From: Patescibacteria group bacterium
Lineage (GTDB): Bacteria > Patescibacteriota > Patescibacteriia > JBAZBY01
Reading direction: 5' to 3'
Assembly: GCA_041671225.1 (NCBI GenBank)
Contig: JBAZBY010000001.1
Span: 494,940 to 558,939 of the forward strand
DNA length: 64,000 nucleotides
The translations under genes were made by a program, and so were the position numbers. The notes beneath the pieces were generated by a model. That model saw only the letters and a program-made list of their open reading frames with translations, was not told the origin of the DNA and searched no databases. Below are positions 14,518 through 56,655 of the stretch, one piece after another. The stretch's first letter is position 1, and each line of letters starts with the position of its first letter.

Positions 14518-14571
14518 GTTTATTCCTTGACCCTTTGACATTTGTCAGAGGGAGAAAATCACTCTTAAATA

Positions 14572-14601
14572 CCCCACGCCTTTCCTTGCAAGGGCGTGGG
14601 G
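14572..14601 (+). terminator. GC-rich hairpin downstream of the 1586-aa gene (CCCCACGCC...GGCGTGGGG)
   Basis: 9-bp stem with 12-nt loop. The weak T-tract after it lowers confidence. Confidence 0.3.
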
Positions 14602-14658
14602 TTGCATATGAAGGAGTCACAGGGTACACTAAGTTCGTTCTATTCGTAAGATAACGCT

Positions 14659-15021: not shown

Positions 15022-15024
15022 GCC

Positions 15025-15474
15025 GTGCTTCTTATCGTTGGTATTGCGCTTTTTGGGCTCGCTGCCATAGATCAAATGGTCAAGGCATGGGTACTGCATC
15101 AACCCGACCCGATGATGATACTTCCGGGTTTTCTTGAGATACGCGCAGTAGAAAATCCAGGCATTATTTTTTCCCTTGTATTGCCACTGTGGCTCATTAT
15201 TCTTGGCAGCGTGGTAAGTGCCATACTACTTATGGTAGCACTCGTGCAGGCTCATAAGGCTGGTCATGAGCGTCTTGTAGTTTCCCTTTGTGCGCTCCTT
15301 GCAGGAGGCATGTCAAATCTATTGGATCGTTTTATGCGCGGCGCCGTTATTGATTATATTGCGCTTCCAAAGCCACTGCCCATTATTAATCTTGGGGATG
15401 TACTGGTTGTACTTGGTTTGGTGATGATGCTCATTGATGTATGGGGGAGAAGGAAAAAAGTAAAGAGTGATTGA
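15025..15474 (+). CDS. lspA: Lipoprotein signal peptidase (signal peptidase II)
   Basis: Four TM segments; motifs FLEIRAVENPGIIFS and SNLLDRFMRGAVIDYI. GTG start. Confidence 0.85.
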   Translation: MLLIVGIALFGLAAIDQMVKAWVLHQPDPMMILPGFLEIRAVENPGIIFSLVLPLWLIILGSVVSAILLMVALVQAHKAGHERLVVSLCALLAGGMSNLLDRFMRGAVIDYIALPKPLPIINLGDVLVVLGLVMMLIDVWGRRKKVKSD

Positions 15475-15532
15475 CAAGTTCTGCATGATTTTGTAATGTG
15501 CCTTTAGAGACCCGGCGGCATACCGGGTTTTT

Positions 15533-31363: not shown

Positions 31364-31386
31364 TGAGACTTAAGGAGGTGAAATAT

Positions 31387-36492: not shown

Positions 36493-39400
36493 TGACGAAT
36501 CGCCTTTACAATACGGTGTTCCGCTCGCTCCTGCAGCTTGTTGTTGTTTTTGGGGGTATGGTGCTATTTGTGCAGTCAGTATCTGCGTTGGCCATTAATC
36601 CTCCTGGGCCAAGGGTGCAATCTGTCACCGCGACAAGCGCAACGGTGTATTGGACAACTGACGCAGCTGCTGATGCAACGGTTGAACTAACAGATACCGT
36701 TACTGGTACAGTAAAATCAAGCACTATCAGTGCGCCTTCTACGATCCACACGGTTATTGTTGAATCTTTGTCGCCTTCAACCACATATACGTATACCGTA
36801 ACATCATTTGATGGCACTAATACTGTCAGTGCGACAGGCGCCACAAATATTGTAACACCGGCAAATATCGGCGATACCACTGCTCCAAAACTTCTTTCTC
36901 CTGGCGTGGGCGTGAGTTGTGGTGCTGTTTCGTGTACGGCGTATGTGCTGTATCAATCCGACGAGTTGGCTATTTCAAAGGTATGGTGGGGTCTTACGTC
37001 ACCCCCAGCAAACGGACCACTCACCACAGGCATTTATGACACGAATTTCTCAACATCAATTACGTCTTTGTCGCATGCAACCGATTATTTCTATACCATT
37101 CATCTTCAGGATGCAGCTGGTAACTTCCGGGAATACGGACCGTTAACCTTTACGACATGCGCTGTCGGAGAAATCGGATGTTTTTCCGTTGGCCAGTGTT
37201 TTGATGGCACGCCGCTTGGTTCATGTAATGAAAAGGCAGAATATTGCGACGGCGGCACGCTCGAACTCAACTGCACAGCATGCGGCTATCAATGCCAAAT
37301 TGGCGCAACATGCAAGACAGGCGGCGCCTGCATCAGTGATCCGCCCGTAACGGACAATACCTATCAATGTAATCCCATTTCTTGTTATGAGCCGGATGGA
37401 ACCTTCACCCAACCCGCTGGCGCAGGGTGCTTTCGCAGCTGGCCAAAGTGTAACTCAAATGTCGTGCTCAAGGTCCGCAATGATCGCGAATGCAAGCGCT
37501 GGATTGATTGCAGAAGTTCCATCGAGGTCAAAGATCCTGTTTCAAAGAGCGTGCAGCAGCTTTGCACAAGCCTTGCCAATTGCGCGCAGATTGACGTTAC
37601 CACCGGTGAGTGCACGCGCTTCTTGCCTGAACGGCAATGCCAGTTCAATCCCGGGCGTTTTTGTTCAAAAAATGAAGATTGCGCTGTTTTTGATGAAGGC
37701 GATTGTCTCCCCGCAGGAACTTCCAGCGCGTTGACCTTTAACACGAACCGCGATCTTGGGAATATTCGTTATCTGACGGGCGCGGTCAAGGCGGGACTGG
37801 AATGGAGCGCTGGTGGTGCGGTATCAGGGCAGTACCCCTGGGCGTTTGCGCGTGAGGATGGGGCATCCGTGAATGTGCTTGATAACAATGAGTTCGAAGA
37901 TGTTGAGGAAGTGTACACGCGTGATGCTCAAGGTGTTGCTATAACAAAAAAGCAATTTACTACGGACCCATGGTTCCCGGTTGGCGGGGTTATAAATGCT
38001 GGTACGCCTCAACAAGAAAATCTTGAATTGGATACAAATGGCAAAGCGTCAAAAATAACAGTGAATAGCGAAAATGCGCAGGATTTGAATAATCCAAATC
38101 ATGTTCTCTGGATATATCCAAACAGTAATGAATTTTCAGGTGCGCGTGCCCCTGTTTCCGGATTTTTTGCAACTGATAAGGATCAATATCAGATATCCTT
38201 GCGTATCAAGGGTACCGGTCTCTCTGATCAGGTTGTTCTCATTCAGCTTTTGCACAAAAATACTCTTGGAGAATTTGAGTACCCTGAAGACGCACGCACA
38301 TACGTGAAATTGACAACAGGATGGCAGAATGTTGCGTTTCAGGCGAATGGCGTTTCAAGTACAACATATCTTCAAATTGTGAATACATTCGGCGGACAGT
38401 GTCTTGGGGCTGGCACGTATTGCCGTGAAGATAGTGAATGTCCGGACGTTGCGTTTGGCAAGCCCGGCAAATGCATGGGCGCCCTTGATCAGGTTGCTGA
38501 CCCAAGTCCATTTTTAGTTGATGATGTATATATTCAGCCATCCCTGAAAGTTTCGAATTCAGACTCGATTGCCCGTTCGTGCCGTTTGTTTCCACGCGGG
38601 GATTCACTCTCCTGCGCGTATAATGACCAAAATGGCATACAATATCAAGGCTGGCGCGGTTTTTGTCTGGAGCAAGATCCCAGTAACGCATCAAAGTGCG
38701 TTTCATGGTGGCCGGTTGACGTGATTGCCGGCGACACCGCTGTTTTGGGGAGTTTTGGTGGAGAAACGCAAGACGGGTATGCCGGCCGCAAACCTGTTTA
38801 TTACTGTCTTGAGGCTGCTGGCAGAGCAATGGGCGTTGAGATAGATCGCTATCAGATTACGGCAAAGTACTTCATGAGCCGTTGTGCAAACTGCACGTTT
38901 CCTGATTTTCCCGATGCAGGTTGGCCGGAGAGTACATCTGAGTGTAATGGAAAAGAATCAGGTGGCGTCTGGGGCGAGTCCTTTTGGGTCTGTGGCGATA
39001 ATGAATCATCAAGCTGGGACATCGAGCCAGATTGGCCGGAATATGATTTTTACCAGTATGAAATTGATAGTATTGAGGTTAAGCGAACAAATGGACGCGG
39101 TGAATACCCCGCAAATTTCTTCTTAACGGAAGAAGATCGGCATCTTGATAGTTCTAATAATGAATACTGGGAATTTGTTCAAGCCAGCAGCTCAACGAAG
39201 AACTTACTACGATTTCAAGTGCATTTTGATGTGAATGGGAAGGTTGCCAGTTATTCTGCAGAAACCGACGATGATACGGAGGACAAAAACGAACCCGGAT
39301 TATTTCTTATCTACTACCATATGAGGGAATGGTGTAACAAGATTGTTCAGGTTGTTGATGACAGTGGTCAGAACAAAGCATGGACACAACGCCTACAGCC

Positions 39401-40868
39401 GTCATCCTCCTATAGCGTTCCAGATCTTAACTATAACCTAGCGACAGATTTTACCCCGTTTGGAGGCATTATTCCGCCACCAGGAACTCCTGAATCATGG
39501 GATGGTGATGTGGGGCGTAATGGAAACCAGCCTCTGTATATTGAGGCTCCACAGATAAATGACCCTGCATTACAGGAACCACTGTATCAAGCTCGCGCGG
39601 GAACCCCCTATGCGTGCCTTGAGAACTGTGATGCACGGCTTTGCGCGGCAGCAGGGAATAAAACAGGAGCATTTTGTAAGAACGCCGATGATTGTGTTGG
39701 TGAGGCTGCTGGGCTACCAGTGTTTGGACGATGTATTGGAGTGGGGACATGTGAGAATACTGCACGACACTGCAACATAAATTATACTTGTCCCGCAAAA
39801 CCAGGCACAGAGCAGACCGAGCAATGTATCGGTGGTGATGCATCATATAAAGGAGGGCAGGCGTTTACTTATAATCAATCAAGTATCTGCTCGCAATCTG
39901 GTAATTATTGTTCAAAAACGAGTGTCGGCCTGTGTTATATTACGGTTAATCTCCCGGTGGGTGGACCTGTTACGCTTCCTACTGGCACATCGTGTTCAGA
40001 TCCCATAGAGTGTGCTGGACCCAACGCAACATGCGTGCCCACGCCTACTGGTGATGGAAGTGAATTCTGCGAAGGTGTTGGTGATGTTTGCACTTCTGTT
40101 TCTGGAAAGGCAACATTTGCCGTGCGCAGACTGCAGCGTCTTTTTGCAGAAAGCTATGGCGCATGGCAATGGAATAACGAGACAAGAAGGTATGAACGCC
40201 TGAACGGGAATGTGACATGGGATCCTCCTTCAAAGGTGTGTAATGTCCGGTGGTGTGAAGATAATAGTGGACGTGGATGTGTGTCAGATCTTGATTGTTC
40301 GGGTAGTACCTGTAGTCCAAACATTACGCCCGGAGTGCGTCCACCAACCTATAATGACACAGTAGCCGCTGCTGATTTGGATTATTGCGGTGTGCCGCCG
40401 CAGATATTCAATGTCTCCGTCAATGGAGAAGAAACAACAACTCGCGAGAGCGATGATATTGTGCGGTTTGAATTCAACACAACGGCGGATCCAAACCAAT
40501 TGCCACTTGAAAGCATTCTTGTGAACTGGGGCGACGGAGATGTGCAGGGACTTTCCTTCCCGTATGCGCCAAAACAGGATACGGATAACCCGCACGTATT
40601 CATCCATGCATACTCCTGTATTGATGGAACAGAAGGTGAAGATGATGGGCGGCTTGATATCTGCACCTTCAAGCCAAAGGCGCTTGTGCGTGATAATTGG
40701 GGATTCTGTAATAATTTCTGGAACAGCGATCCCACTGCTCCGTCAACCTTGAAATGCGATATTGATAATACGGATGTATGGGCGCCAAATGAATGGTTCA
40801 CAGAACCCGGCGGTAAGCAGCAAGAAGAAGTGCTGGTGATTATTAACGCGGAGACTCCGGCGCCGTAA
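36492..40868 (+). CDS. Giant (1458 aa) cysteine-rich surface protein with N-terminal FN3 domains
   Basis: TAATG stop/start overlap with the upstream gene. Signal/TM segment. FN3 at the N-terminus (PRVQSVTATSATVYWTTDAAADATVELTD). Many Cys-pairs. Confidence 0.8.
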   Translation: MTNRLYNTVFRSLLQLVVVFGGMVLFVQSVSALAINPPGPRVQSVTATSATVYWTTDAAADATVELTDTVTGTVKSSTISAPSTIHTVIVESLSPSTTYTYTVTSFDGTNTVSATGATNIVTPANIGDTTAPKLLSPGVGVSCGAVSCTAYVLYQSDELAISKVWWGLTSPPANGPLTTGIYDTNFSTSITSLSHATDYFYTIHLQDAAGNFREYGPLTFTTCAVGEIGCFSVGQCFDGTPLGSCNEKAEYCDGGTLELNCTACGYQCQIGATCKTGGACISDPPVTDNTYQCNPISCYEPDGTFTQPAGAGCFRSWPKCNSNVVLKVRNDRECKRWIDCRSSIEVKDPVSKSVQQLCTSLANCAQIDVTTGECTRFLPERQCQFNPGRFCSKNEDCAVFDEGDCLPAGTSSALTFNTNRDLGNIRYLTGAVKAGLEWSAGGAVSGQYPWAFAREDGASVNVLDNNEFEDVEEVYTRDAQGVAITKKQFTTDPWFPVGGVINAGTPQQENLELDTNGKASKITVNSENAQDLNNPNHVLWIYPNSNEFSGARAPVSGFFATDKDQYQISLRIKGTGLSDQVVLIQLLHKNTLGEFEYPEDARTYVKLTTGWQNVAFQANGVSSTTYLQIVNTFGGQCLGAGTYCREDSECPDVAFGKPGKCMGALDQVADPSPFLVDDVYIQPSLKVSNSDSIARSCRLFPRGDSLSCAYNDQNGIQYQGWRGFCLEQDPSNASKCVSWWPVDVIAGDTAVLGSFGGETQDGYAGRKPVYYCLEAAGRAMGVEIDRYQITAKYFMSRCANCTFPDFPDAGWPESTSECNGKESGGVWGESFWVCGDNESSSWDIEPDWPEYDFYQYEIDSIEVKRTNGRGEYPANFFLTEEDRHLDSSNNEYWEFVQASSSTKNLLRFQVHFDVNGKVASYSAETDDDTEDKNEPGLFLIYYHMREWCNKIVQVVDDSGQNKAWTQRLQPSSSYSVPDLNYNLATDFTPFGGIIPPPGTPESWDGDVGRNGNQPLYIEAPQINDPALQEPLYQARAGTPYACLENCDARLCAAAGNKTGAFCKNADDCVGEAAGLPVFGRCIGVGTCENTARHCNINYTCPAKPGTEQTEQCIGGDASYKGGQAFTYNQSSICSQSGNYCSKTSVGLCYITVNLPVGGPVTLPTGTSCSDPIECAGPNATCVPTPTGDGSEFCEGVGDVCTSVSGKATFAVRRLQRLFAESYGAWQWNNETRRYERLNGNVTWDPPSKVCNVRWCEDNSGRGCVSDLDCSGSTCSPNITPGVRPPTYNDTVAAADLDYCGVPPQIFNVSVNGEETTTRESDDIVRFEFNTTADPNQLPLESILVNWGDGDVQGLSFPYAPKQDTDNPHVFIHAYSCIDGTEGEDDGRLDICTFKPKALVRDNWGFCNNFWNSDPTAPSTLKCDIDNTDVWAPNEWFTEPGGKQQEEVLVIINAETPAP

Positions 40869-40869
40869 T

Positions 40870-43800
40870 ATGCAGAAACACCTGCACAATCTACGAAATA
40901 TTCTCAACCGCGTTTTTGGCATACGAGCGCCTCATAAACGCGTTGTTCTGTTGGTAGGCGTTCTGTCCGTTGCCGTAGGCGTCTTTTTTGCGTTGCAGTT
41001 CGTGAAGGCAGATGCCGGAGAAACCGTTGTTCGCATTGCAACCAATGCATTCACAAGTCTTCTTGCGGAGATCGTTATTTATATTGACAAACTTCTTGCG
41101 CGCCTGCTTGTGGTGCTTTCCAACATCATGATAGCCGCTGCGTCATATAATGATTTTGTGAATGCTCCGGCAGTTGAGAAGGGCTGGACGATCGTGCGCG
41201 ATCTCGCAAATATGTTCTTCATTGTCGTGCTTCTGGTCATTTCTTTTGGCACGATCCTTCGCATTCAGCAGTATCGCTTTCAGCAGACGTTGCCGCGCTT
41301 CATCATTTGGGCGGTACTCATCAACTTTTCCAAGTTCATCGCCGGCGTGTGGATCGATTTTGCGCAGGTCATCACGCTGACGTTTGTGAATGCATTTAGA
41401 GATGCCGCTGCGGGGAATATCGTGGATGCCTTTGGGTTGCGCGAGATGCTCACCTTTTTGAATGATGGATCCACGATCAGCGCAGATGCAGGCGATGTTC
41501 TTGGTGCGGTTATCCTTTCGCTCGCGTTGCTCATCATTGCAAACGTCGTTATTTTTTCTCTTGCAATCACCTTTCTTTTTCGCATCGTTGCCTTGTGGCT
41601 CTTGGTGGTGCTCTCTCCGATCGCGTATGTGACGCGCACGTTTCCGAATGCGACAAAGTATTCTGATCAGTGGTGGACAATGTTCAACAAATATGTGATG
41701 ACCGGCCCTGTGCTTGCCTTCTTTATTTGGCTCGCCTTGACGATTATCGCGACGCCGGGACCGGATAATCTCCCTTATTTGCAGGGCGTCGTCGGCACTA
41801 TTGATGATGCGACCCAGACAGCCGGGTATGACGTTGTTAATGCGACCAGTGCCGGCGGTTATGGACTTGCCGCGTCAATCAGCGCAATTAGCAGTAGCGA
41901 TCGCCTGCTTTCTTTTATACTTTCGATCGGGCTTTTTATCTCAGCTTTGATGGCGACGCAACAGCTTGGTGTGATGGGCAGCGGCGTCGCTGGTTCCGCG
42001 CTGAAGGGCATTCAGAAGGGCGCGCTGGGGACCGCACGCTGGGTTGCGCGGAGACCAGGAGCCATGGGTTCATGGACTGCAAGAAAGATCAAGGCGGGTC
42101 GCGCGCCAGGGCCGCTGAAGAGACTTGCTGGCGTTGATTTTAACCCCGCCAATTTTGTGCGAGGCGTTCGCAAGGGTATGGCAAACAAGCGCATTGAAGA
42201 AGAACTGGAAGGTACGCGCGAATCTGGCGCCAAGGCAAGGCAATCCGGGGGACTCAAAGCTGCGATTTATGCCGGGGGAACCCCAGAAGATTTTCAGCGG
42301 GAATACATGAGCGGATTCATCTATAATCGCGGGCTTCAACGTTTGGGCATGAATGCTTCAGAAAAAGCCGAATCGATCAGAACACAGGCTTTGGAAGAAA
42401 AAAAGAAAAAAGAATCCCTTGAGATGCTTGCGCAAACTCCGGATCCCGAGACCTACATGGAGAATGATTTGAATAGCAGGATAGATATTCATGAACAGGA
42501 ATTAAAAGCGAAAACTAATCAGATCGAGGAAGGCGATACTATTGAGAAAAGGCTTCTTGTTCGCCGAGATGCACTTGAGAAGCTGAAAAAGCCAAAAGAG
42601 GGGCAAGCAGTAGACCAAAATAAGGTCGAAGCTGAAGAGGCAGCTATTGCGGACTTGGAAGTGAAAAAACAGACCTTCTTGGAGAATAAAAAGAATTTTG
42701 GGGAACAGTGGGAGGAGGATAGAGCTGCTTTGGACACAGAATTGACGGCATTGAAGACACAGCGGGCTTCGGTTTTTGGCGTAGGAGCAGACGGTACGCC
42801 AGCGCTGGACCCGAACGACAGATATACAGCAGCCATGCAGTATGTTGAGGAGCAACACCAAAAGAAGGTCGTAGAACGAGACCGCGTTCAACGCGGCGGC
42901 ATTACTGACGCACAAATAGAAGAGCGCAAGGCTCTGATACGAGCAGCACGGCAGAAGGACAGAACAGCAGCAAAGGAACAAGATTCTCTTATTGAAAAAA
43001 AGGATACTGCGCATCCTGAGGAGCTTGCAAAGCTCAATGCGCAGCTTGAAGAGTTGCAGAAATTACGGGAGGGCATTGCAGCATGGATGGCGCGAATTGA
43101 TGATGGCGGGAAAACGCGATTAACACGTGACGATTATAAGAACCATCAACAGACATTGGGCGAGGGCAGGGAGACAGAAGATGAGAGGTTCAAAAAGGAA
43201 GAAATAGACGTTGATGGCAAAAAAACTGGGCGCACCATGGGCGAGGCGTTGATTAAGGGATTAAATGAGGCATTGACCGAAGACACAGAGCAGCTCGATG
43301 CCATGAGAACCATTACAGAGGCACAGCGGGAGCAATATAGAATACTGGCCGCAGAAGCAGGCACAGCACAGAAGAAATTGGAAGATAAGGCCATGGAAGC
43401 ATCAAAATGGGTGTTTCAGGACTTTAGCGCTCGCGCCGCGGGCCGCACTGCCGCGTCTATTGCAGCCAAAAATGTTGATACAGAAAATGAACATGAGCTT
43501 ATCCAGCTTTTTAAATCTGCATTGAATAATGATGACAAAGGTTTGGCAGAAGCAGTGATGCGGGAAGCAGCAGCAGTGGGGCACTTGAATGAATTGGTGA
43601 ATGCAGAGGGATTCATCGCGAACCAGGACGGGCTTAATCAGTTTGTTAATAAGACCCTTGTTGATAAGCTCGGCATGGACAAGCAAATTGCTTATGGCAT
43701 CCAGAATGACGCTTCAGAAATGGCGCAGCGAATTAATCACTGGACCTTTGCGCAATCTGTCGGCGTCAAGAGCGGACAATATTATCAACGCACTCCGTAT

Positions 43801-44205
43801 GAACAGGGAATGCGTTCAGCAGTTGAAATGTCCAAGAAGGATCCTGAAGGTGTTGTGCGGCAATCGAACCGCCTTGGGTATGGAGGGGAGGATCCCAGCG
43901 GAGCTTTTCATATCTCTGAAGTAGGTTTGCATATGATCGCAAAAGGATATAAATCCATTCAAAGCCAGTTTAGTCGCGGCCGCTATAACCGCAGCGCAGC
44001 AATGAAACTCGTTACCCCGGAGACCTTCTCAAGACTGCAGAGCCTTATGTATACGGATCTCATCGATGACAAGCGGCTTTACAGAAAGTTCTTGAATGAA
44101 TTGCTCTCATATGCGGCAGGCTCTGCAGACACGCTGGGTGCAGAAAGCAGGGCAGTGAGTAGGCTGCTTGATCACGCGGTGCCTCGGGATCTTCCAAACG
44201 TTTAA
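40870..44205 (+). CDS. VirB6/TrbL-like polytopic membrane protein with long coiled-coil hydrophilic C-terminal extension
   Basis: N-terminal about 330 aa with at least 6 TM helices and an early periplasmic loop, as in VirB6/TrbL. The remaining roughly 780 aa are charged and heptad-rich (EELQKLREGIAAW..., KKLEDKAME...). Confidence 0.65.
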   Translation: MQKHLHNLRNILNRVFGIRAPHKRVVLLVGVLSVAVGVFFALQFVKADAGETVVRIATNAFTSLLAEIVIYIDKLLARLLVVLSNIMIAAASYNDFVNAPAVEKGWTIVRDLANMFFIVVLLVISFGTILRIQQYRFQQTLPRFIIWAVLINFSKFIAGVWIDFAQVITLTFVNAFRDAAAGNIVDAFGLREMLTFLNDGSTISADAGDVLGAVILSLALLIIANVVIFSLAITFLFRIVALWLLVVLSPIAYVTRTFPNATKYSDQWWTMFNKYVMTGPVLAFFIWLALTIIATPGPDNLPYLQGVVGTIDDATQTAGYDVVNATSAGGYGLAASISAISSSDRLLSFILSIGLFISALMATQQLGVMGSGVAGSALKGIQKGALGTARWVARRPGAMGSWTARKIKAGRAPGPLKRLAGVDFNPANFVRGVRKGMANKRIEEELEGTRESGAKARQSGGLKAAIYAGGTPEDFQREYMSGFIYNRGLQRLGMNASEKAESIRTQALEEKKKKESLEMLAQTPDPETYMENDLNSRIDIHEQELKAKTNQIEEGDTIEKRLLVRRDALEKLKKPKEGQAVDQNKVEAEEAAIADLEVKKQTFLENKKNFGEQWEEDRAALDTELTALKTQRASVFGVGADGTPALDPNDRYTAAMQYVEEQHQKKVVERDRVQRGGITDAQIEERKALIRAARQKDRTAAKEQDSLIEKKDTAHPEELAKLNAQLEELQKLREGIAAWMARIDDGGKTRLTRDDYKNHQQTLGEGRETEDERFKKEEIDVDGKKTGRTMGEALIKGLNEALTEDTEQLDAMRTITEAQREQYRILAAEAGTAQKKLEDKAMEASKWVFQDFSARAAGRTAASIAAKNVDTENEHELIQLFKSALNNDDKGLAEAVMREAAAVGHLNELVNAEGFIANQDGLNQFVNKTLVDKLGMDKQIAYGIQNDASEMAQRINHWTFAQSVGVKSGQYYQRTPYEQGMRSAVEMSKKDPEGVVRQSNRLGYGGEDPSGAFHISEVGLHMIAKGYKSIQSQFSRGRYNRSAAMKLVTPETFSRLQSLMYTDLIDDKRLYRKFLNELLSYAAGSADTLGAESRAVSRLLDHAVPRDLPNV

Positions 44206-48385: not shown

Positions 48386-49063
48386 ATGGAACGCAAACTA
48401 CGCAAACCAAAACAAGCATCGACACAAGAGTATCTTCGTATTCAGGAGATCAAGGATGATGTCGTGGTGATGAAGGACGGAAGTCTTCGCGGCGTTTTGC
48501 TTGTTGCGTCGGTAAACTTTGCCCTCAAGAGTGACGACGAGCAGATTGCCGTTATTCAGTCGTATACGCAGTTTTTGAATGCTCTTACGTTTCCCTTGCA
48601 AATCGTTATCCAATCGCGCAAATTGAATGTGGATGAGTATTTGAACCGTCTTCGTGAGGTTGAGAAAGCACAAACGAATGATTTACTGAAGATGCAGACG
48701 GCGGAGTACGTGCAGTATATTAAGGAGCTTGTGGAAATCGCCGACATTATGTCGAAGCGTTTTTATGTGGTGGTGCCGTTTTATCCAGGAGAGAACGAAC
48801 GAACGCCGGCGAAGTTTTTTGGACGTTTTTTTCAGGCATTGTCGCCAACAAGCATCATCCATCTGAAGCAAAAGCAGTTCATTGATTTGCGCACAGAACT
48901 CATGAAGCGCATTGATTATATCATTGAGGGTCTTTCTGAATCCGGCTTAAAAAGCGTTTTACTCAATACGCAGAGCCTCATTGAGCTTTATTACAATACC
49001 TATAATCCAGAAGTGTACAGCCAAGAGCAATTACTTGATGTTTCAAAGATTCAAATAGACTAA
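48386..49063 (+). CDS. VirB4/TraC/TrbE N-terminal domain (separate ORF)
   Basis: VLLVASVNFALKSDDEQIAVIQSYTQFLNALTFPLQIVIQS...RFYVVVPFY, typical of the VirB4 N-domain. Stops 1 nt before the ATPase ORF and is in a different frame. Confidence 0.7.
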   Translation: MERKLRKPKQASTQEYLRIQEIKDDVVVMKDGSLRGVLLVASVNFALKSDDEQIAVIQSYTQFLNALTFPLQIVIQSRKLNVDEYLNRLREVEKAQTNDLLKMQTAEYVQYIKELVEIADIMSKRFYVVVPFYPGENERTPAKFFGRFFQALSPTSIIHLKQKQFIDLRTELMKRIDYIIEGLSESGLKSVLLNTQSLIELYYNTYNPEVYSQEQLLDVSKIQID

Positions 49064-49064: not shown

Positions 49065-51047
49065 ATGGCAGAAATCGACCTCTCCAAAGCAGGAAAGCTC
49101 CGCGAGCCTCAACGCAAGGTTTCTATTGAGGAGCGTCAGAAGCAGGAACAGCAACACCTGCAAAAGCAAAAACAACTTCTTGAAGCTGAGCGGTTGTATC
49201 GGGAGGGTGTTGTCTCCGTTCGTGATCTGATAGCCCCAGCCGCCATGAAGGTGGAAAATGATTATATTCGTTTGGGCAGCAAGTTTGTCCGTACGGTGTT
49301 TGTGGTGACGTATCCTCGCTATATTGCCGTTGGATGGTTTTCACCGATCATTACTCTGAACTATACATTGGATATTGGCATGTTCTTCTATCCTGTGGAT
49401 TCCGCGGTTATTTTAAAGCAGCTGAAGAATAAAGTCGGCGCTCTTGAGGCGCAGATTCTCGCCGATGCAGAAAAGGGTGCGCCGCGTGATCCTCTTCGTG
49501 AAACCGCGCTCCGCGACATTGAAAAACTCCGCGATGATCTCACCCAAGGCACAGAGAAGTTCTTTCAATATGCGCTCTATATCACCATCTATGCAGATGA
49601 TAAGAAAGACCTTGATCGTCAGACAGAAAAGGTAGAATCACTTTTTGGCGCACGACTGGTGTATACAAAGCGCGCGCTCTTTCAATCTGAACAGGGTTTT
49701 AATGCCACAGTGCCGATGGGAGAAGATGAACTCATGGTGACCTTCAACATGAATTCTTCGCCTGTTGCAAGTTCCTTCCCGTTCGTTTCAAGTGACCTCA
49801 CGAGTGATAACGGCATTCTTTACGGCATTAACCGCCATAATAACTCACTGATTCTTTTTGACCGCTTTAGCCTGCAGAATGCGAATTCCGTGGTGTTTGC
49901 AACCGCTGGCGCTGGAAAGAGTTATGCCGTGAAACTGGAGATCCTGCGTTCACTTATGCTTGGGACGGAAATCATTGTCATCGATCCTGAAATGGAATAC
50001 AAACATCTTTCTGAGGCGGTGGGCGGAACATATATTAGCATCTCACTCAACGCGGATTCCAAGATTAATCCTTTTGATCTCCCCAGTGCCCTGCAGGGTG
50101 ATGAAAAACCGGCTGATATCATCCGGTCCGCCGTCATCACGTTAAAATCGCTGCTGCGCCTCATGCTCGGCGAACTGACGCATGAAGAAGACTCCATCAT
50201 TGACCGCGCGTTGCTTGAAACGTATGCCAAGAAGGACATCACTCCGGATGCGGATCTTTCCAATATTGAAGCCCCGCTCATGACGGATTTTCAGGAAGTG
50301 CTTTCTGGCATGGAGGGCGCGGATGGATTAGTTGAACGTTTAAAAAAGTATACTGAGGGGACGTTCTCTGGCTTGTTTAATAGCCCGACGAATGTTGAAC
50401 TTAAGAATAATCTCGTCGTGTTCTCTGTGCGTGACCTTGAGGATGAACTGCGCCCGATCGGCATCTCAACGATTATTTCGTATATTTGGAATATCGCGCG
50501 CTCCAGGCTCAAGAAGCGTCTTTTAGTCATTGATGAAGCCTGGTGGCTGATGCAGCATGAAGACTCGGCAAAGTTTATCTACGCACTGGTCAAGCGCGCA
50601 CGAAAGTATTATTTGGGCGTTACCACCATTACGCAGGACGTGAATGACTTCTTACGTTCGCCATATGGCCAGGCCATCATTAACAACTCAGCCTTGCAGT
50701 TGCTCATGAAGCAGTCACGATCCGGGATCGATATTGTCGCCAAGACATTCATTCTCACAGAAGGTGAGAAGTATTTGTTGCTGGAATCCGGCGTTGGTGA
50801 AGGTATCTTCTTTGCCGGTTCTAAACACGCTGCGATCAAAGTTGTTGCTTCGTATACAGAAGATCAGATTATTACATCAGATCCGCGCCAGCTTCTTGAA
50901 ATTGAGGATGCAAAAAAAGAGTTTGAGGCATCATTGGATAGTAACGAGGAAGATGGTATTGAGGATATCTTTGATGCGGAAGAAAAATTGAACCCAATGA
51001 GTCCTGAAGAGCGGGAGATCCAGGAGATGCGTACTACAAAGCGATGA
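49065..51047 (+). CDS. VirB4-like type IV secretion ATPase (C-terminal ATPase domain)
   Basis: Walker A FATAGAGKSYAV and Walker B LLVIDEAWWLM. Conserved VirB4 blocks: YIRLGSKFVRTVFVVTYP, ITQDVNDFL. Confidence 0.85.
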   Translation: MAEIDLSKAGKLREPQRKVSIEERQKQEQQHLQKQKQLLEAERLYREGVVSVRDLIAPAAMKVENDYIRLGSKFVRTVFVVTYPRYIAVGWFSPIITLNYTLDIGMFFYPVDSAVILKQLKNKVGALEAQILADAEKGAPRDPLRETALRDIEKLRDDLTQGTEKFFQYALYITIYADDKKDLDRQTEKVESLFGARLVYTKRALFQSEQGFNATVPMGEDELMVTFNMNSSPVASSFPFVSSDLTSDNGILYGINRHNNSLILFDRFSLQNANSVVFATAGAGKSYAVKLEILRSLMLGTEIIVIDPEMEYKHLSEAVGGTYISISLNADSKINPFDLPSALQGDEKPADIIRSAVITLKSLLRLMLGELTHEEDSIIDRALLETYAKKDITPDADLSNIEAPLMTDFQEVLSGMEGADGLVERLKKYTEGTFSGLFNSPTNVELKNNLVVFSVRDLEDELRPIGISTIISYIWNIARSRLKKRLLVIDEAWWLMQHEDSAKFIYALVKRARKYYLGVTTITQDVNDFLRSPYGQAIINNSALQLLMKQSRSGIDIVAKTFILTEGEKYLLLESGVGEGIFFAGSKHAAIKVVASYTEDQIITSDPRQLLEIEDAKKEFEASLDSNEEDGIEDIFDAEEKLNPMSPEEREIQEMRTTKR

Positions 51048-51619
51048 GTCCCGCCATCCGTATTACACTGATTTTTGTGAGTATTATCCTTGTTGGGGGG
51101 ATCGGACTCGGTTTACTGCTCTTTAAAGATTCATCACCAGACACCGTTCAGGACACTCTTCCGGAGAACGAAGATGTCGTGCCTGCGACGACACCGACAA
51201 ATTCCAGTATATCGGAGGATGCGCCCGTTATTGAACCAGAGGCGAATACGACGCAGCAGATTCGCAACGTTGCCATCATTTTTTCAGAACGTTTTGAAAG
51301 CTATAATGAAAACGCGCGCGAAGCAGTGCTCCCCAGCGTTCAAGCGTATCTCACGGATGCAAGCCTTGTGACGCTCACAAGAGAGGCCGAATATCTTGCT
51401 ACACAGCCGAATGTTGAAAAGCCGAACGTCTACACTGCTCAAGCGTTCAATGTTTCCATTGTTGATGAGCAGCCAGCTCGGGCAACGGTTGATGTTTCAC
51501 TTTTTGTAGAAACTTCTATAGGAGCGTCAATTGAGGTGACCTCTACGGAGCAACGTACACGACGATATATCCTTATCCAAGAAAATGAGAACTGGAAAAT
51601 AATAAATGCCATTTTCTAA
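51044..51619 (+). CDS. Bitopic membrane protein, candidate VirB8-like (NTF2-like) component
   Basis: N-terminal TM helix IRITLIFVSIILVGGIGLGLLLF followed by about a 150-aa mixed alpha/beta domain ending ...ENENWKIINAIF. Position and topology are consistent with VirB8 (low confidence). Confidence 0.45.
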   Translation: MSPAIRITLIFVSIILVGGIGLGLLLFKDSSPDTVQDTLPENEDVVPATTPTNSSISEDAPVIEPEANTTQQIRNVAIIFSERFESYNENAREAVLPSVQAYLTDASLVTLTREAEYLATQPNVEKPNVYTAQAFNVSIVDEQPARATVDVSLFVETSIGASIEVTSTEQRTRRYILIQENENWKIINAIF

Positions 51620-52916
51620 GCGCGCCATCTTAACTTTTCTTCTCCTGCTTTTGGCGGTACTTTTTCTTGTGCCTGCAGGAGATGTGCATGCACAAGAACA
51701 CGAGATTCAGTTGAGCGTGGATCTGCCCGGCACGTCGCCATGCAGCTATGATGCAACAAAAAAATGTGTTGCGGATTTTGGTGATTATATGGCGAACTTT
51801 TACCGCTGGTTTGTGAGCGTTTCTGGCGTGCTTGCGATCGCAATGCTTGTGATGGGCGGATTCATGTGGATAACCGCAACAGGAAACAGCAGCAAAATCG
51901 AATCCGCAAAGGATGTGATTAACAGTGCGCTTTCTGGCGTGGTTCTTTTGATGCTTTCTTTTTTGTTCTTGCAACTCATCAACCCGCAGATTCTTTCATT
52001 GCGTCTTCCTATTCCCGGCATCACGGGTAGCGATTTTTTTCTTGATAGTACGATACTGTGCAACGGCCGTGCGATATTGGAAGACAGGGATACGGCGACC
52101 TGCGGGGACATTGTGTCCTTAGACATTGCAACAGCGGTTGGCGTGAAACAGCCTTGTATCTGGAATGAATGCAAAGATCCAAAGGAAGTCTGCGCGCCTA
52201 ATCCAAAAGTAGGGAAATATGAATGCCTGACTCCGATCAAGGGCTGCACGTACTCAAAACCAAAGGATTGCCAGGCAGTTGACCTTATTTTTCAAAATAC
52301 CGTACCTCCCGTGACTGAAGGGGGGAAAGTGTTTTCCTGCCGCACGCGTAACCTCACAGATGCCATTCCTCTTATTGGGTATGAAGATGACTGCAGCCCT
52401 GGCCCAATATGGTCAACATATGCGCCTCTTCCCGTAAAAGACCTGGTTGATAGCCGTATTGCGGATTCTGGGTATCAATGTGGTGATGACGCAGACTGGA
52501 TGCGCGTTACGTGCGATGCCGGTAAAGGAAGAAAAACAGAGTGTTGGCGTCCGGATGATGGTGGTCCGAGAGAGGAAACAAAGAGCATTAATGATCCATG
52601 GTGGGCGCAGTTGGATAACCATATGGCTGTTTCCTATATCAAGGCACGCTTAACATGCACAGATGCTGCACGGGCGAATCAAACGTCAGACATGGTTTGC
52701 TGCGGTCAGCGCGATAAAGGTCAGATTGATTGTCGGGGTATTGAAGAAAAAATCGATGAGAATGAAATTGCCGTACCTTGTGATTATTACAATACCCTGA
52801 CTGACGAGTATGACGGAAAACTTTCTACGAATAGCAAAGCAAAAGATAAGAACGCCACACGAGACTGGTGTGATGATATTTGCTTTATGCAAATAGATAT
52901 TAAATTTGGGCTCTAA
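51606..52916 (+). CDS. VirB2/TrbC-like pilin-motif protein fused to a large Cys-rich extracellular domain
   Basis: Signal peptide, then the hairpin-helix motif WFVSVSGVLAIAMLVMGGFMWITATGNSSKIESAKDVINSALSGVVLLMLSFLFLQLINP. About 280 aa Cys-rich C-terminal region. Confidence 0.65.
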   Translation: MPFSKRAILTFLLLLLAVLFLVPAGDVHAQEHEIQLSVDLPGTSPCSYDATKKCVADFGDYMANFYRWFVSVSGVLAIAMLVMGGFMWITATGNSSKIESAKDVINSALSGVVLLMLSFLFLQLINPQILSLRLPIPGITGSDFFLDSTILCNGRAILEDRDTATCGDIVSLDIATAVGVKQPCIWNECKDPKEVCAPNPKVGKYECLTPIKGCTYSKPKDCQAVDLIFQNTVPPVTEGGKVFSCRTRNLTDAIPLIGYEDDCSPGPIWSTYAPLPVKDLVDSRIADSGYQCGDDADWMRVTCDAGKGRKTECWRPDDGGPREETKSINDPWWAQLDNHMAVSYIKARLTCTDAARANQTSDMVCCGQRDKGQIDCRGIEEKIDENEIAVPCDYYNTLTDEYDGKLSTNSKAKDKNATRDWCDDICFMQIDIKFGL

Positions 52917-52919
52917 AAT

Positions 52920-54167
52920 ATGAATCGTTCACGGCTTCAGACGCTTCTCTATTTGGCGGCATTCATCATCACCGTTTTGCTTTTCATATTTGCGATATAT
53001 TGGTTGTTTTTTAGGACCGCTCCATCCACAAATACAAATGACAATGCAAACGAAAACGTGAATGGCTTGCCGAACGTGAATGCGGCAAATTTCAATGTCA
53101 ATGGAAACGCAAATGCGAATATTGCCTTACCGAATGTGAATACCACCGATCTCATAGATCGCATTGCTCAGGGCGGTTTCACACAGACCAACCTCGTTAC
53201 GGAAAATGCCGTCATTGCTCCAAGTTTTGGATCGAACGATCAGGATCTTGTTTTTTACGACACCGCTGAAGATAAGTTTTATCGTCGTACGCAAGATGGA
53301 CGTTCACAAACATTGCTCACTGAAGAGACCTTCCCCGAGGTTGAGTCGATAGCATGGTCACCAACAGGCGATAGGGCGGTGCTCACATTCCCTGATGACA
53401 CAAAACTCTATTATAACTTTGCCACGCAAGAGAAGGCGACGCTGCCAAAGGAGTTGAATGATATTTCTTTCTCGCAACAGGGCACGCAGATCGCCTCAAA
53501 GTTCGTAGGATCAGAAACCACTGATACGTGGCTGACGGTCTCGAATCCAGACGGAACAGGCGCAGAGATCCTTGAAAGCCTTGGTGAGAATGAAAGTCTT
53601 GTGGACGTCAACTGGTCGCCAACGCAACAAGTCGTGGCAACGTATCACCGCGGGACATCCTTTGATGCCGAAGAGGTTATTTTTCTTGGCAAAGAGGGAG
53701 AGAATTTCCCTTCCGTGAATGTACCCGGCCGCGGTTTTGAAGGAATTTGGAGCAGCGATGGACGGAAGATGCTCTATTCTGTGTACGCCCCTGAGACGCG
53801 CAACGTCCCGCAGATCTATTTTATGGATGCATCGGGGGATAATTTTGGCACAAATCATCAGACACTTGCACTTGAAACATGGGCGGACAAATGCACTTTC
53901 TCGCTTACCGGTACGAATGTGTATTGTGCGGTGCCGAACTTCTTGCCAAGCAGCTCCGGTTTTGACCGTGCACTTGCATTAGGTATCCCGGATGATATCT
54001 ATAAAATTGATCTTATCAATGGGCGCGCGGACAGAATCGCAACGCCGGTTGATTCCCGCGGCCTTGCAACCGTTACTGCTTCTGACCTTCTCGTTTCTCC
54101 TGCTGAAGATGTGCTGTATTTCAAAAGCGAGAGTGACGGGAAAGTTTATACCCTTAATCTTCGATAA
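52920..54167 (+). CDS. TolB-like beta-propeller protein with N-terminal TM anchor and Asn-rich low-complexity linker
   Basis: TM helix LYLAAFIITVLLFIFAIYWLFF. NVN-type repeats NANENVNGLPNVNAANFNVNGNANANIALPNVN. PD40/TolB-like blades (WSPTGDRAVLTF, WSPTQQVVATYH, WSSDGRKMLYSV). Confidence 0.7.
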   Translation: MNRSRLQTLLYLAAFIITVLLFIFAIYWLFFRTAPSTNTNDNANENVNGLPNVNAANFNVNGNANANIALPNVNTTDLIDRIAQGGFTQTNLVTENAVIAPSFGSNDQDLVFYDTAEDKFYRRTQDGRSQTLLTEETFPEVESIAWSPTGDRAVLTFPDDTKLYYNFATQEKATLPKELNDISFSQQGTQIASKFVGSETTDTWLTVSNPDGTGAEILESLGENESLVDVNWSPTQQVVATYHRGTSFDAEEVIFLGKEGENFPSVNVPGRGFEGIWSSDGRKMLYSVYAPETRNVPQIYFMDASGDNFGTNHQTLALETWADKCTFSLTGTNVYCAVPNFLPSSSGFDRALALGIPDDIYKIDLINGRADRIATPVDSRGLATVTASDLLVSPAEDVLYFKSESDGKVYTLNLR

Positions 54168-54264
54168 GTGCGCGATTCACTCACTGGCTATCTTCTTATC
54201 GCGATCGGCGCACTCTTCTTGCTCATACTGATTGTGCAACAATTTAAGTCGGCCTCATGATATT

Positions 54265-55551
54265 ATGAAACGTTCTCTCCTTTTTATCTCTTTTTTCATA
54301 CTTGTCGGCCTTAGTTTTGCGAGGCCGGTTTTTGCAGAGGGGTGTTGCGTGGGGCCAACGGCAGCATATTTTCTTTTTGATAATAATCAATGCCTTAATG
54401 AGGCCTCACCTCCTGGCCGCTGGGATGCGCATCAGTACCCGGACAGCATAACAGGCAAGTGCGAGCTGATGGTTGGCGCGGACGAGAGGGCGCTCGTTAT
54501 TGGTAAGTCCATTGCGACTCAGGTTGCAGAAAAGCCCCCGCTTATTTTTATTCCGAGCGTTGAGATACCGGGACTCTTCACTGGCCCCATTGTGGTTGGC
54601 AATGAGACATTAGGGCAGTATATCGCGGCGTTTTATATGTTTTTTGTCGGTCTCACGGGAGTGCTCGCAATGGCTATGTTGGTTTATTCTGGATTCCGGC
54701 GCATTACGGCAGCAGGGAACTCAAGCAAAGTACAGGAATCAACAGATATCATGAATGCCGCGCTTTCAGGCGTGGTACTGGTGATGCTCTCATATTTGCT
54801 GCTCAATCTCATTAATCCAGCACTGACGCGTCTTGCGGGCATGCAGCTTGATCCCATTAAGCCGGTATTGTTTTCATTTGAATCATCGGCTCATTCATTG
54901 AGGGACGCGAGTGTTTGCGGTGTTGGGGTGAACCCCGCAACAGGGGAACTTGTCGGTTTTCAGGATGATATTTATGAGTATGATGATATTTTTAAGGAGG
55001 TTGGTGATGCAAAAGGGGTGATGCCAAGCCTTTTAAAGGCGATCATGATAGTAGAGTCATGTGGGGATCCAGATGCAGCAAGCGTTCTGGAAGATGGTAC
55101 AAATGGCGGATGTGGTCTTATGCAGGTGAATCCAAAAAACAACACAACGGGCGGTTCTGGTTGTGACGGTCTCAGAACACCCGCAATTGAACCGACAGAT
55201 TCTGACGCCGTTAAAGAAGCAAAGCTAAAAATCATCAAAGCGAATATCACGCGTGGCGCAGAGATTATTGTACACGCGTATAAAAAAACATGTCCAGAAA
55301 CGGCGCGATATGAGTCTGGTGAAGTTGTGCAGTGCGATCATCAAAAGAGTGGCTGTATTGTGGGTGCTGATCGTTATGCCATTGCTGCGTATAATGGAGG
55401 CACTGGTGCAAATTGTAACAGCAGTGATTGTCAGGGAGAGACTTGGTGGGAGTGTAAGAATAATGATGGTTTTGCAGCAACACGACAGTATGTATCGAGT
55501 ATTGTGGCAGCGCACAATATGATCAGAAATAGAAATTGGATTCCGGATTAA
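54265..55551 (+). CDS. Pilin-motif protein fused to a lytic transglycosylase (SLT, VirB1-like) domain
   Basis: Signal peptide MKRSLLFISFFILVGLSFARPVFA. Pilin motif FFVGLTGVLAMAMLVYSGFRRITAAGNSSKVQESTDIMNAALSGVVLVMLSYLLLNLINP, paralogous to 51606-52916. SLT catalytic motifs IVESCGDPDAAS...GGCGLMQVNP. Confidence 0.75.
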   Translation: MKRSLLFISFFILVGLSFARPVFAEGCCVGPTAAYFLFDNNQCLNEASPPGRWDAHQYPDSITGKCELMVGADERALVIGKSIATQVAEKPPLIFIPSVEIPGLFTGPIVVGNETLGQYIAAFYMFFVGLTGVLAMAMLVYSGFRRITAAGNSSKVQESTDIMNAALSGVVLVMLSYLLLNLINPALTRLAGMQLDPIKPVLFSFESSAHSLRDASVCGVGVNPATGELVGFQDDIYEYDDIFKEVGDAKGVMPSLLKAIMIVESCGDPDAASVLEDGTNGGCGLMQVNPKNNTTGGSGCDGLRTPAIEPTDSDAVKEAKLKIIKANITRGAEIIVHAYKKTCPETARYESGEVVQCDHQKSGCIVGADRYAIAAYNGGTGANCNSSDCQGETWWECKNNDGFAATRQYVSSIVAAHNMIRNRNWIPD

Positions 55552-56655
55552 AAGAAGGAGGCGGGCCAAGGGTTTGAACCTTGTGTTACCCGCCATCGTA
55601 TCTAGCGCCCCGTAAGGGGAGAGTGCCGTGAGATTGGCCTGTGCGCTCGCAAGGAGCGCTGTTTCAGGCACGTATCAGGCGCCTCTTTCGCTGTTTGTGC
55701 TGTTGTGTGGGGTTTGGCGGCTACGTCGTGTTGCTGAATCTAGGATGACCCGTCTTCCTCACACTGTTTGGGAGTCCCTACCGTTCGTCGCCGCGACCAG
55801 AGTGGTAGCGACGCCGGTGCGGATGTCCCGGACCCATGAGGGCGCCGGTGTACCCCAGGGAGGATTCCCTAGGGTGCGCTCCGCTTCCGGACAGTACCAG
55901 CTCGGCATCGGCGGCGCCCAGCCTCTTGCTCTCGTTGCCGGGAAGATCCAGTGTCCGCGTCGGCAGCTGGCGCGGCTTCGGCTCGAGCCGCAACCCTTCC
56001 TGCGGGATGTCAGTTCCGGTGAGGAAACCTTCCCGTTGGAGGACTTCGTGCTCGGCCATTACGCCAGGACCGAAAGCGGGGTAGATGATGCGCGGTTTGG
56101 CCACGCTCGGGTCAGTGAGACCCCAGCGCAGCGTCCGCGACATCGGTTGATCGCTTCCGTGTACCAGTCCGGTCTGACTGCAGACCAGCCGCGCAGAACC
56201 TTTCGGTTCTGGCACCGCGAACCCGAAACCCAGGGTTCCGATACAGCAGCGGTGTCCGCTGCCTGTGTCGTGCCCCGGGCATTGGTCACCCGACTTGAGA
56301 GACTTCTTTTTTTCCATCTGCTTTGAACCTTTTCGCGTGTTGAGGGTTGTCACGCCATACTTCACTACCCTTTCTTTTTTTTGGAGGTATGACGCTGTTG
56401 CGTTGCGTGGAATCCCTCCCTTGCTCATTTGAGTGGAAGGGGAAAAGGGGGAGCACGCCGAAAATGTTCGGAGGGCAACTCCCATGATGTCCGCTGGGCG
56501 GTTCAAGACCCTAAACATCATGAGAAGAACACTTCTCGGGCATGCTCCCAAAGATTGGGAACAAAGCAACACGAAGTAGCTTTCAAGGTGCGCTTTGTGT
56601 TTGCATGGACTATACGAGAAAGAGGATATTTGTCAAGTTGAACCCTGGTCTCTTC
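55552..56655. other. GC-rich 1.1-kb segment without a convincing gene, between the convergent T4SS-like operon and recG; nature unresolved
   Basis: Only mutually antisense, Arg/Gly/Pro-rich ORFs (55628-56326 +, 55778-56572 -) typical of GC-rich non-coding DNA. Composition is clearly GC-richer than flanking genes by eye. Begins with a 35-nt GC hairpin (55560-55594). Confidence 0.3.

Follow-up and report, generated by a model that had tools for sequence, protein, structure and literature searches.

The interval 51606-55551 of a 64-kb stretch of a Patescibacteria metagenome-assembled genome (MAG) chromosome, referred to here as the window, holds three same-strand genes in the list of open reading frames (ORFs), at 51606-52916, 52920-54167 and 54265-55551. 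The outer two encode proteins of 436 and 428 amino acids (aa; protein 1 and protein 2, the latter counted from its ATG), each of which combines a two-helix hairpin of the T4SS_pilin family with a long C-terminal part, a cysteine-rich domain in protein 1 and a predicted SLT lytic transglycosylase domain in protein 2. The gene between them encodes a TolB-like beta-propeller. It is proposed here, with a probability of about 0.55, that the two are modular VirB2-like proteins, in which the hairpin would couple the outer modules to a type IV secretion system (T4SS), and the SLT module would provide VirB1-type wall cutting. The original prediction, made from the letters of the sequence, had the coordinates of the pilin-fusion ORFs, which both lie on the + strand, right, but it described two proteins in the interval and omitted the propeller gene. 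The NCBI records, from a contig of 1,028,488 bp, carry the titles 'MAG: pilin' (MFA6512255.1) and 'MAG: transglycosylase SLT domain-containing protein' (MFA6512257.1). The features of the interval are as follows:

51606..51692, +: signal peptide of protein 1 (residues 1-29, cleavage VHA-Q; hydrophobic segment 7-25, AxA-type site)
51777..52001, +: T4SS_pilin hairpin of protein 1 (residues 58-132; PF18895 27.7 bits against a cut-off of 26.6)
52002..52913, +: extracytoplasmic domain of protein 1 (304 aa, 20 Cys)
52920..54167, +: TolB/PD40-like beta-propeller, 415 aa, membrane-anchored, between the two pilin-fusion genes
54265..54336, +: signal peptide of protein 2 (residues 1-24, cleavage VFA-E; hydrophobic segment 5-23)
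54337..54609, +: N-terminal outer segment of protein 2 (Cys at 27, 28, 43 and 66; F-x-P-x3-I-P-G before the hairpin)
54610..54834, +: T4SS_pilin hairpin of protein 2 (residues 116-190; PF18895 27.9 bits against 26.6)
54835..54981, +: linker of protein 2, about 50 residues, predicted disordered
54982..55548, +: predicted SLT (GH23, family 1) lytic transglycosylase domain of protein 2, with conserved cysteines
55054..55056, +: codon of Glu264, the predicted catalytic acid

Two pilin-family hairpins with large outer domains

In each protein, a signal peptide, whose AxA-type cleavage site was read from the sequence, is followed by a short outer segment with paired cysteines and then by two hydrophobic helices joined by a short polar and basic loop bearing R/K residues. 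An alternative TTG start 33 nucleotides (nt) upstream would give protein 2 11 extra residues before its signal peptide. AlphaFold2 (AF2) places the helices at residues 58-90 and 95-125 of protein 1 and at residues 116-148 and 153-183 of protein 2, with a turn of about 4 residues between them, and a strictly conserved I-N-P motif closes the second helix. BLASTP of protein 1 against protein 2 yields one significant segment, residues 58-132 against 116-190, with 44 of 75 positions identical (59%), no gaps and E 2e-25; outside the hairpin it aligns nothing, and the profile-profile comparison of the outer-domain families (hhalign) gives a probability of 0.05%. Therefore, the paralogy that had been claimed for the two proteins applies to the hairpin and does not extend beyond it.

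The resemblance of this segment to VirB2/TrbC pilins, also part of the original prediction, has support: profile searches assign the segment to the T4SS pilin family and not to an unrelated family of membrane anchors. PF18895 is matched above its gathering cut-off in both proteins, the isolated hairpin of protein 2 reaching 32.5 bits (cut-off 26.6), and by 28 of 28 sampled relatives (best E 3e-15). The TrbC/VirB2 family PF04956 is matched by 9 of the 28 sampled related hairpins (best E 1e-4), which supports VirB2 kinship at the family level. A search with a hairpin hidden Markov model (HMM) found no short pilin gene in the window, and none lies within 10 kb in nine syntenic loci, so that the two fusions are the only pilin-family genes of the cluster. 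A weak match to the same model at 53983-54228 (E 0.004) is out of frame over the propeller gene and was judged to be due to chance.

A further conserved motif, F-x-P-x3-I-P-G, precedes the hairpin by some 15 residues and is not covered by the Pfam model; it lies at 54553-54573 in protein 2 (residues 97-103), and protein 1 has L-P-G at 51723-51731 (residues 40-42). Its residues P97, I101, P102 and G103 are invariant in alignment A2, and hairpin-only (A5) and fusion (A6) sets alike have it in their consensus. It may be a processing site or a packing contact.

The two hairpins of one genome resemble each other more than orthologous hairpins of distant genomes do. At nine loci with the same triad of genes (a long hairpin protein or pilin-X, a TolB-like propeller and a pilin-SLT protein), the pilin-X and pilin-SLT hairpins within a genome are 51-75% identical, whereas orthologous hairpins of distant loci are 24-50% identical. 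This pattern indicates that the hairpins evolve in concert, since an old duplication without homogenisation would give the opposite one. The same codon is used at identical residues in 18 of 42 cases in the window, against 14.3 expected, in 14 of 42 at locus L016 and in 18 of 49 at L020; synonymous sites are thus saturated at these three loci, and the likeness is held there at the protein level. Recent gene conversion as the only cause of the likeness was accordingly rejected for them, same-codon use being near expectation. At L005 (41 of 52) and L026 (36 of 52) most identical residues also have identical codons, a sign of recent gene conversion. The positions that the hairpins have in common are found mainly in the loop and in the half of each helix nearer the inner side of the membrane, and the outer ends differ. 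The simplest reading is that both hairpins must fit one lineage-specific partner, which could be the other hairpin or the cytoplasmic face of a VirB3/VirB4/VirB6-like platform.

The C-terminus of protein 2 is, by motifs and predicted fold, a true SLT family-1 lytic transglycosylase. PF01464 is matched with 40.7 bits against a cut-off of 21.3 (E 2e-10), and the family-1 motifs IVES (E264-S265), GLMQ (284-287) and AYNGG (374-379) are all present. Profile searches of the PDB match the domain to MltC, Slt70 and MltE and align Glu264 with the ES glutamate (QES/TES) of Slt70 and MltC, the catalytic residue of these enzymes (Glu478 in Slt70). E264, S265, G284 and Q287 are invariant across 93 fusion proteins, which argues that the enzyme is under purifying selection; Y376, N377 and G379 are at least 90% conserved, and C343, C357, C364, C389 and C397 are invariant in alignment A7. 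The SLT module and its active site, both named in the original prediction, are therefore upheld by profile and by catalytic-residue alignment. In the AF2 model of protein 2, whose overall predicted local distance difference test score (pLDDT) is 62.8, residues 240-422 mostly score 70-90 but fall to about 50-65 around 270-300 and 350-390. The linker scores below 50 at residues 184-212, and no secondary structure is seen up to residue 239. The best Foldseek matches of the model are MltF, MltE, MltC, Slt and g-type (goose-type) lysozyme, with probabilities of 0.95-1.0 and E-values of 8e-4 to 2.5e-2, which are modest because the whole chain served as query. The NCBIfam search adds a weak match to EmtA (E 6e-4), and no second hydrolase domain was found in protein 2 by Pfam search.

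The part of protein 1 that follows the hairpin is a real, uncharacterised domain family, probably with ten disulfides. Protein 1 has only three close homologues (38-44% identity), each with exactly 20 cysteines after the hairpin. A word-indexed search with the cysteine-rich domain alone returned no relatives beyond those known, and the family was extended only by local iterative HMM searches among the HMMER matches of protein 2, which added about 16-17 more clusters at 50% identity and the pilin-X gene of L005, each with 18 or 20 cysteines. Across 13 diverse members aligned, 18 cysteines are invariant, together with CG, CW and CC motifs, and in the sequences examined the domain follows a T4SS_pilin hairpin. 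No Pfam match and no PDB profile match were obtained for it. The possibility that it is a degenerate SLT domain was rejected on the hhalign comparison given above.

Both tails had been described as 280-300 aa long and rich in Cys, Asp and Gly. The length is about right for protein 1 (304 aa) and too great for protein 2 (238 aa, including the linker of about 50 aa), and the enrichment is found in both when they are set against nine other, mostly cytoplasmic, proteins of the window: Cys makes up 6.6% and 4.2% of the tails of proteins 1 and 2 against 0.5%, Asp 11.8% and 7.6% against 5.3%, and Gly 7.2% and 10.5% against 5.9%. The strictly cytoplasmic proteins of the cluster have 0-1 Cys each. At the related loci L001 (9372-10004) and L002 (9378-10004), a Thioredoxin_4/DsbA-like gene of 208-210 aa lies between the propeller and pilin-SLT genes. 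Taken together, the contrast in cysteine content between outer and cytoplasmic proteins and the DsbA-like gene in the operon of relatives argue for oxidative, extracellular folding of the tails. In the window, the place of this gene is taken by a gap of just 97 nt (54168-54264), which implies that its outer cysteines would be oxidised by an enzyme encoded elsewhere.

An exhaustive search with HMMER, in which protein 2 was the query against 1.84 billion cluster representatives, gave 1039 matches at E <= 1e-10, and 155 sequences were analysed. The hairpin is followed by SLT, always in that order, in 93 of the 155, that is, in at least 93 clusters at 50% identity, and by another long tail (182-1006 aa) in 60. 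All 93 fusions match PF01464 and 86 of them match PF18895. In the second set, the hairpin is joined to Peptidase_M23 (4), M15_4/VanY (2), 3D (2), Ig-like and beta-helix domains, the M23, M15_4/VanY and 3D tails all being wall hydrolases. The pilin-hydrolase fusion is thus widespread in Patescibacteria and already domain-annotated in databases; the architecture, which the original prediction had called unusual, is so when set against textbook T4SSs and is not so in this phylum. We found no discussion of pilin-hydrolase fusions in T4SSs in searchable full text, which covers few subscription journals, and in the passages and by the terms searched in PMC12102498, PMC12857230, PMC10633639 and PMC11665869, which report arrays of short pilins, there is no mention of such fusions, of the propeller or of the Cys-rich domain. 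Two to four tandem T4SS_pilin hairpins occur in 13 of the 155 sequences (P0035, P0058, P0060, P0068, P0071, P0088, P0103 and others), with four in P0035 (618 aa); it is possible that these are poly-pilins or precursors.

The secretion gene cluster and its relatives

Protein 1, the propeller and protein 2 form the end of an operon-like run on the + strand, whose ORFs overlap or nearly abut and which contains the following genes upstream of the triad:

40870..44205, +: polytopic membrane protein of 1111 aa; the hydropathy scan shows some 7 hydrophobic segments in residues 1-365
between this gene and PrgI, +: soluble proteins of 451, 99 and 619 aa
47922..48383, +: PrgI, VirB3-like small membrane protein (PF12666 E 6.7e-9, 36.6 bits against a cut-off of 27)
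48386..49063, +: TrsD/TraC-like protein (NCBIfam TrsD E 9e-7, VirB4_plasma E 2.5e-10)
49065..51047, +: VirB4-family ATPase, the signature T4SS motor (NF045971 conju_CD1110 362 bits against a cut-off of 325, E 6e-108)
51044..51619, +: 191-aa bitopic protein, one N-terminal transmembrane (TM) segment at residues 9-27

All T4SS genes of the cluster lie on the + strand. The ATPase also matches PF19044 (P-loop_TraG, E 4e-29), and the TrsD/TraC-like ORF is the counterpart, as a separate ORF, of the N-terminal part of VirB4; the identical gene at L003 matches PF26593 (TraC-like). The 191-aa protein, whose gene shares 4 nt with the end of virB4 and 14 nt with the beginning of the protein 1 gene, has only a weak match to ARC6-like_IMS (E 0.0015), a domain that we take to have an NTF2-like fold, and it has a counterpart at L001-L005. 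Its size, topology and position suggest a diverged VirB8/PrgL, a type of component that is reported to be hard to find in Patescibacteria (PMC12102498). The 1111-aa protein, for which the Pfam search gave no match, has a large soluble C-terminal part without cysteine and is, by position and topology only, a candidate for an extended VirB6/PrgH-like channel subunit. The 99-aa and 619-aa upstream ORFs had been considered as a short pilin and a VirB6, and both were dropped as they have no TM segment. The propeller matches Beta-prop_THOC3 (E 7e-7), PD40 (E 6e-4) and the TolB propeller (E 3.6e-5) and has an N-terminal TM segment at residues 8-26; a homologue adjoins hairpin genes in more than 20 loci. 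Neither a coupling protein nor a relaxase was found in profile searches of the window proteins. The cluster is a chromosomal, relaxase-less, monoderm-type T4SS as described for Patescibacteria (PMC12102498).

This gene order recurs. A genome scan with narrow back-translated patterns gave only 8 loci, and a metagenome scan with 24 sequences gave 61, of which about half are plain SLT genes without a hairpin and were left out. The contigs of the closest homologues repeat the order of the window, from the 451-aa, 99-aa and 619-aa proteins through PrgI, the TrsD-like protein, VirB4 and the 191-aa protein to pilin-Cys, propeller and pilin-SLT. The triad is found at L001-L005, L015, L016, L019, L020 and L026, downstream of virB4 wherever the upstream sequence suffices (nine independent loci), and a variant order, hairpin-SLT followed by the propeller, at L013/14, L028, L030, L035 and L037. 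A distant fusion, P0008, is also encoded downstream of PrgI/VirB4. Upstream sequence of at least 6 kb is available for 11 fusion loci, and virB4 lies within about 7 kb in 7 to 8 of them. Short hairpin ORFs adjoin the pilin-SLT gene at L039 and L027, and there are two more at L053. Downstream of its propeller gene, L010 has a close group of four hairpin ORFs (8790-17541), each of about 630 aa, of which the first three adjoin or overlap one another; the pilins of this array are long and modular and not short.

The remainder of the window consists of housekeeping genes (LeuRS, PNPase, KsgA, Sua5, RecG and one tRNA-Arg) and of genes for very large Cys-rich surface proteins. Three of the latter are consecutive at 25670-40868 (+), with 1897, 1709 and 1458 aa, 73, 38 and 67 cysteines, one N-terminal hydrophobic segment each, and fn3, Big_7, CBM_4_9 and BNR-like domains; they are a very disulfide-rich surface proteome immediately upstream of the T4SS genes. 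On the - strand, 3193-4101 and 17062-18351 encode a type IV pilin-like protein, which has the N-terminal methylation motif PF07963, and, as a separate protein, a LysM-Peptidase_M23 wall hydrolase, so that the pilus and wall-hydrolase genes of the genome are not confined to the T4SS cluster. The 1.1-kb stretch 55552-56655, which separates the pilin-SLT gene from recG, has a GC content of 58%, against about 47-50% around it. It has long ORFs on both strands, with Arg/Gly/Pro-rich products that have no Pfam match, it has no Rfam match, and it is not conserved at the same position at L001 or L002. On the - strand, 55640-56600 has an RNA fold far stabler than that of shuffled sequences (z = -6.2), and a strong sigma-70-like promoter (TTGACA-16-TATAGT, 56636-56609, -) stands just upstream on that strand. 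The stretch could represent a GC-rich insertion or else a large structured RNA of no known class.

How the modular proteins may work

The proposed model is that each protein would be inserted by the Sec pathway, as the signal peptides suggest, and lose its signal peptide by cleavage. The hairpin would then stand with both ends outside and its short basic loop inside, which would leave the Cys-rich and SLT domains outside the cell membrane, where disulfides are possible. Synteny and concerted evolution suggest that the hairpin would be recognised by a VirB3/VirB4/VirB6-like platform or would pack with its partner hairpin. Held by the flexible linker of about 50 residues, the SLT domain would cut peptidoglycan glycan strands beside the machine, a job of the VirB1/PrgK/TraG type, and the 20-cysteine module would be a rigid surface domain for some ligand. 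The membrane-anchored TolB-like propeller probably works with both pilin-fusion proteins. The VirB3/VirB4 operon also fits the idea, put forward in the original prediction, that such a fusion could localise wall remodelling at the secretion site.

VirB1 homologues are rarely found with VirB4 in Patescibacteria, where other glycosidases may fill the role (PMC12102498), and an SLT tail doing the job of VirB1 would explain this rarity. The essential T4SS locus of Ca. Southlakia epibionticum ML1 encodes short PF18895 pilins together with lysozyme-like and M15B hydrolases that are proteins of their own (PMC10633639, supplement). Set beside these separate hydrolases, the fused SLT, M15 and M23 forms suggest, by a Rosetta-stone argument, that pilin and hydrolase are functionally linked.

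Several observations weigh against the proposal of modular VirB2-like proteins. Neither window protein matches TrbC/VirB2 (PF04956) at E <= 0.1, and a hairpin profile search of the PDB retrieved no solved VirB2 or TraA; a sequence link to these was dropped, the matches being just chance-level ones to sensory-rhodopsin transducers (E > 1). The label 'pilin' of PF18895 proteins, with the pilus formation and T4SS binding that it stands for, is itself inferred. The likeness of the hairpins at L005 and L026 is at least partly due to gene conversion, which is possible without functional coupling, and the fusion loci L025, L033 and L044 have no virB4 within 10 kb. The wall on which the SLT domain acts may be the cell's own or that of a host. 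The AF2 model of the Cys-rich domain, made with four homologous sequences, is unusable (pLDDT 44, below 50 over most of the domain).

In one rival reading, the PF18895 hairpin would be just a common two-helix anchor for secreted enzymes of Patescibacteria, its proximity to virB4 being operon hitch-hiking. The many unrelated domains that the hairpin bears (SLT, M23, M15, 3D, Ig-like, beta-helix and Cys-rich), the fusion genes that have no virB4 within 10 kb and the inferred status of the name 'pilin' would all agree with it. However, the VirB3/VirB4 gene order is kept across loci whose hairpins are only 24-45% identical, the ORFs overlap in the operon, the essential genes of S. epibionticum include the pilin genes of its T4SS locus (PMC10633639), and the loop-proximal halves of the hairpins evolve in concert even where synonymous sites are saturated, which would be unexpected for a passive anchor. 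We therefore regard a generic anchor as improbable. It is equally improbable that the fusions are precursor polyproteins, from which cleavage after membrane insertion would free a short mature pilin and an outer enzyme or domain. The prepilin TrbC of RP4, which undergoes C-terminal trimming, offers an analogy; the I-N-P motif after the second helix and F-x-P-x3-I-P-G before the first could mark processing sites, the linker after the hairpin is predicted to be disordered, and the relatives with 2 to 4 tandem hairpins (P0035, P0058, P0060 and others) look like polyproteins. These motifs, however, could equally well be helix caps or packing contacts, and comparison of the related loci revealed no protease gene conserved in the operon. 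Hydrolases of monoderm T4SSs, moreover, need a membrane anchor (PrgK, and TraG of pIP501; cited in PMC12102498), and release would lose the localisation.

A further reading, to be held only tentatively, goes beyond membrane-bound modules. The matching hairpins would polymerise together at the VirB4 platform, either by themselves or along with a major pilin whose gene lies elsewhere, into a filament that shows the SLT and Cys-rich modules on its surface or tip and that binds and locally digests the wall of the host bacterium from which the epibiont feeds. The hairpins do belong to a pilin family, no short pilin accompanies them in the window or in the nine syntenic loci, and likeness within a genome is what would be expected of subunits packing in one helical lattice. 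In F-pilus structures, both ends of a VirB2-type hairpin face outward from the filament, and peptides fused to the C-terminus of F-pilin are displayed. The filament would nevertheless be a supposition drawn from the genes. By our own estimate, a filament that rises by about 13 Å per subunit along its axis would leave little room for a domain of 25-33 kDa on each of them, and the short pilin genes that adjoin pilin-SLT in some lineages suggest that the fusions are minor or accessory forms and not the filament itself. A pilus in Patescibacteria is called an open possibility in a T4SS review (PMC12857230), but membrane-anchored hydrolases are the rule in monoderm T4SSs, for which a pilus is not needed (PMC12102498). 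It is doubtful that the co-evolving hairpins bring the two modular pilins together in a T4SS filament or stub that carries a wall-cutting enzyme and a ten-disulfide binding domain and with which an epibiotic Patescibacteria cell breaches the wall of its host bacterium.

Relation to known systems

The T4SS of Patescibacteria is essential for epibiotic growth in the one species tested, and its cargo and the building of a pilus are open questions (PMC10633639, PMC11665869, PMC12857230). The modular proteins described here, VirB2-like in our reading, share with the short pilins of this phylum (SEML1_0014-0019 of Ca. Southlakia epibionticum ML1) the PF18895 hairpin, the signal peptide, a VirB3/VirB4 locus without relaxase and the presence of several divergent paralogues per locus. 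They differ from them in size, as the short pilins are encoded by genes of about 380-435 bp and have nothing after the hairpin, whereas the window proteins have 428-436 aa and tails of 238-304 aa, and protein 2 has about 90 aa more before the hairpin. Pilins within an array are reported to average 25% identity, with a maximum of 54% (PMC12102498), compared with 59% for the two window hairpins. A canonical VirB2/TrbC pilin is likewise much shorter than the 436 and 428 aa of the window proteins, its mature form having about 70-120 aa that are essentially the hairpin.

Protein 2 also resembles the VirB1-type hydrolases of monoderm T4SSs (PrgK of pCF10, TraG of pIP501 and TcpG), which are SLT or lysozyme-like, encoded in the T4SS operon and held at the membrane, and which are believed to make a local opening in the wall for the machine (PMC12102498). 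It is a predicted wall hydrolase encoded in a T4SS operon, whose signal peptide and hairpin topology are predicted to put the SLT domain outside. In contrast to PrgK, TraG and TcpG, which have an ordinary N-terminal TM segment and usually an added CHAP or amidase domain, it has a pilin-family hairpin and no second hydrolase domain. In the survey of Patescibacteria (PMC12102498), most genomes with VirB2-like pilins lack VirB1; its table gives a single component label per protein and has no SLT domain entries, so that pilin-SLT fusions would probably be counted as VirB2 only. This suggests that proteins classed as pilins may contain some of the wall hydrolase that seems to be 'missing'.

The conserved triad of pilin-X, TolB-like propeller and pilin-SLT, together with the new family of 20-cysteine domains, offers concrete targets, and the co-evolving pair of hairpins gives a direct handle on which T4SS component recognises pilins. 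A filament bearing the outer modules, if there is one, would be the first VirB2-type pilus armed with an enzyme, and the pilin-hydrolase fusions (SLT, M23, M15 and 3D) would form a new class of filament-displayed wall hydrolases.

The nearest analogue in design comes from Streptococcus sanguinis, where PilB and PilC are modular type IV pilins, each with a filament-subunit module that carries a bulky functional module on its C-terminal side. They belong to an unrelated superfamily and machine, with N-methylated class III signal peptides in place of a VirB2-like hairpin, and we know of no wall hydrolase module among them. A second parallel is EtgA, the lytic transglycosylase of a type III secretion system (T3SS), which acts with the inner-rod protein EscI; there, too, a specialised SLT enzyme is coupled to a subunit of a secretion filament or rod. 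EtgA and an EscI-EtgA chain are among the PDB matches to the SLT domain of protein 2 (4xp8 and 8urn), although weakly (E 0.03-0.04), and the fused chain is presumably a laboratory construct, to judge from the name of the entry. In nature, the coupling of EtgA to EscI is non-covalent and belongs to a diderm T3SS, whereas in protein 2 the enzyme and the pilin-family hairpin are covalently joined.

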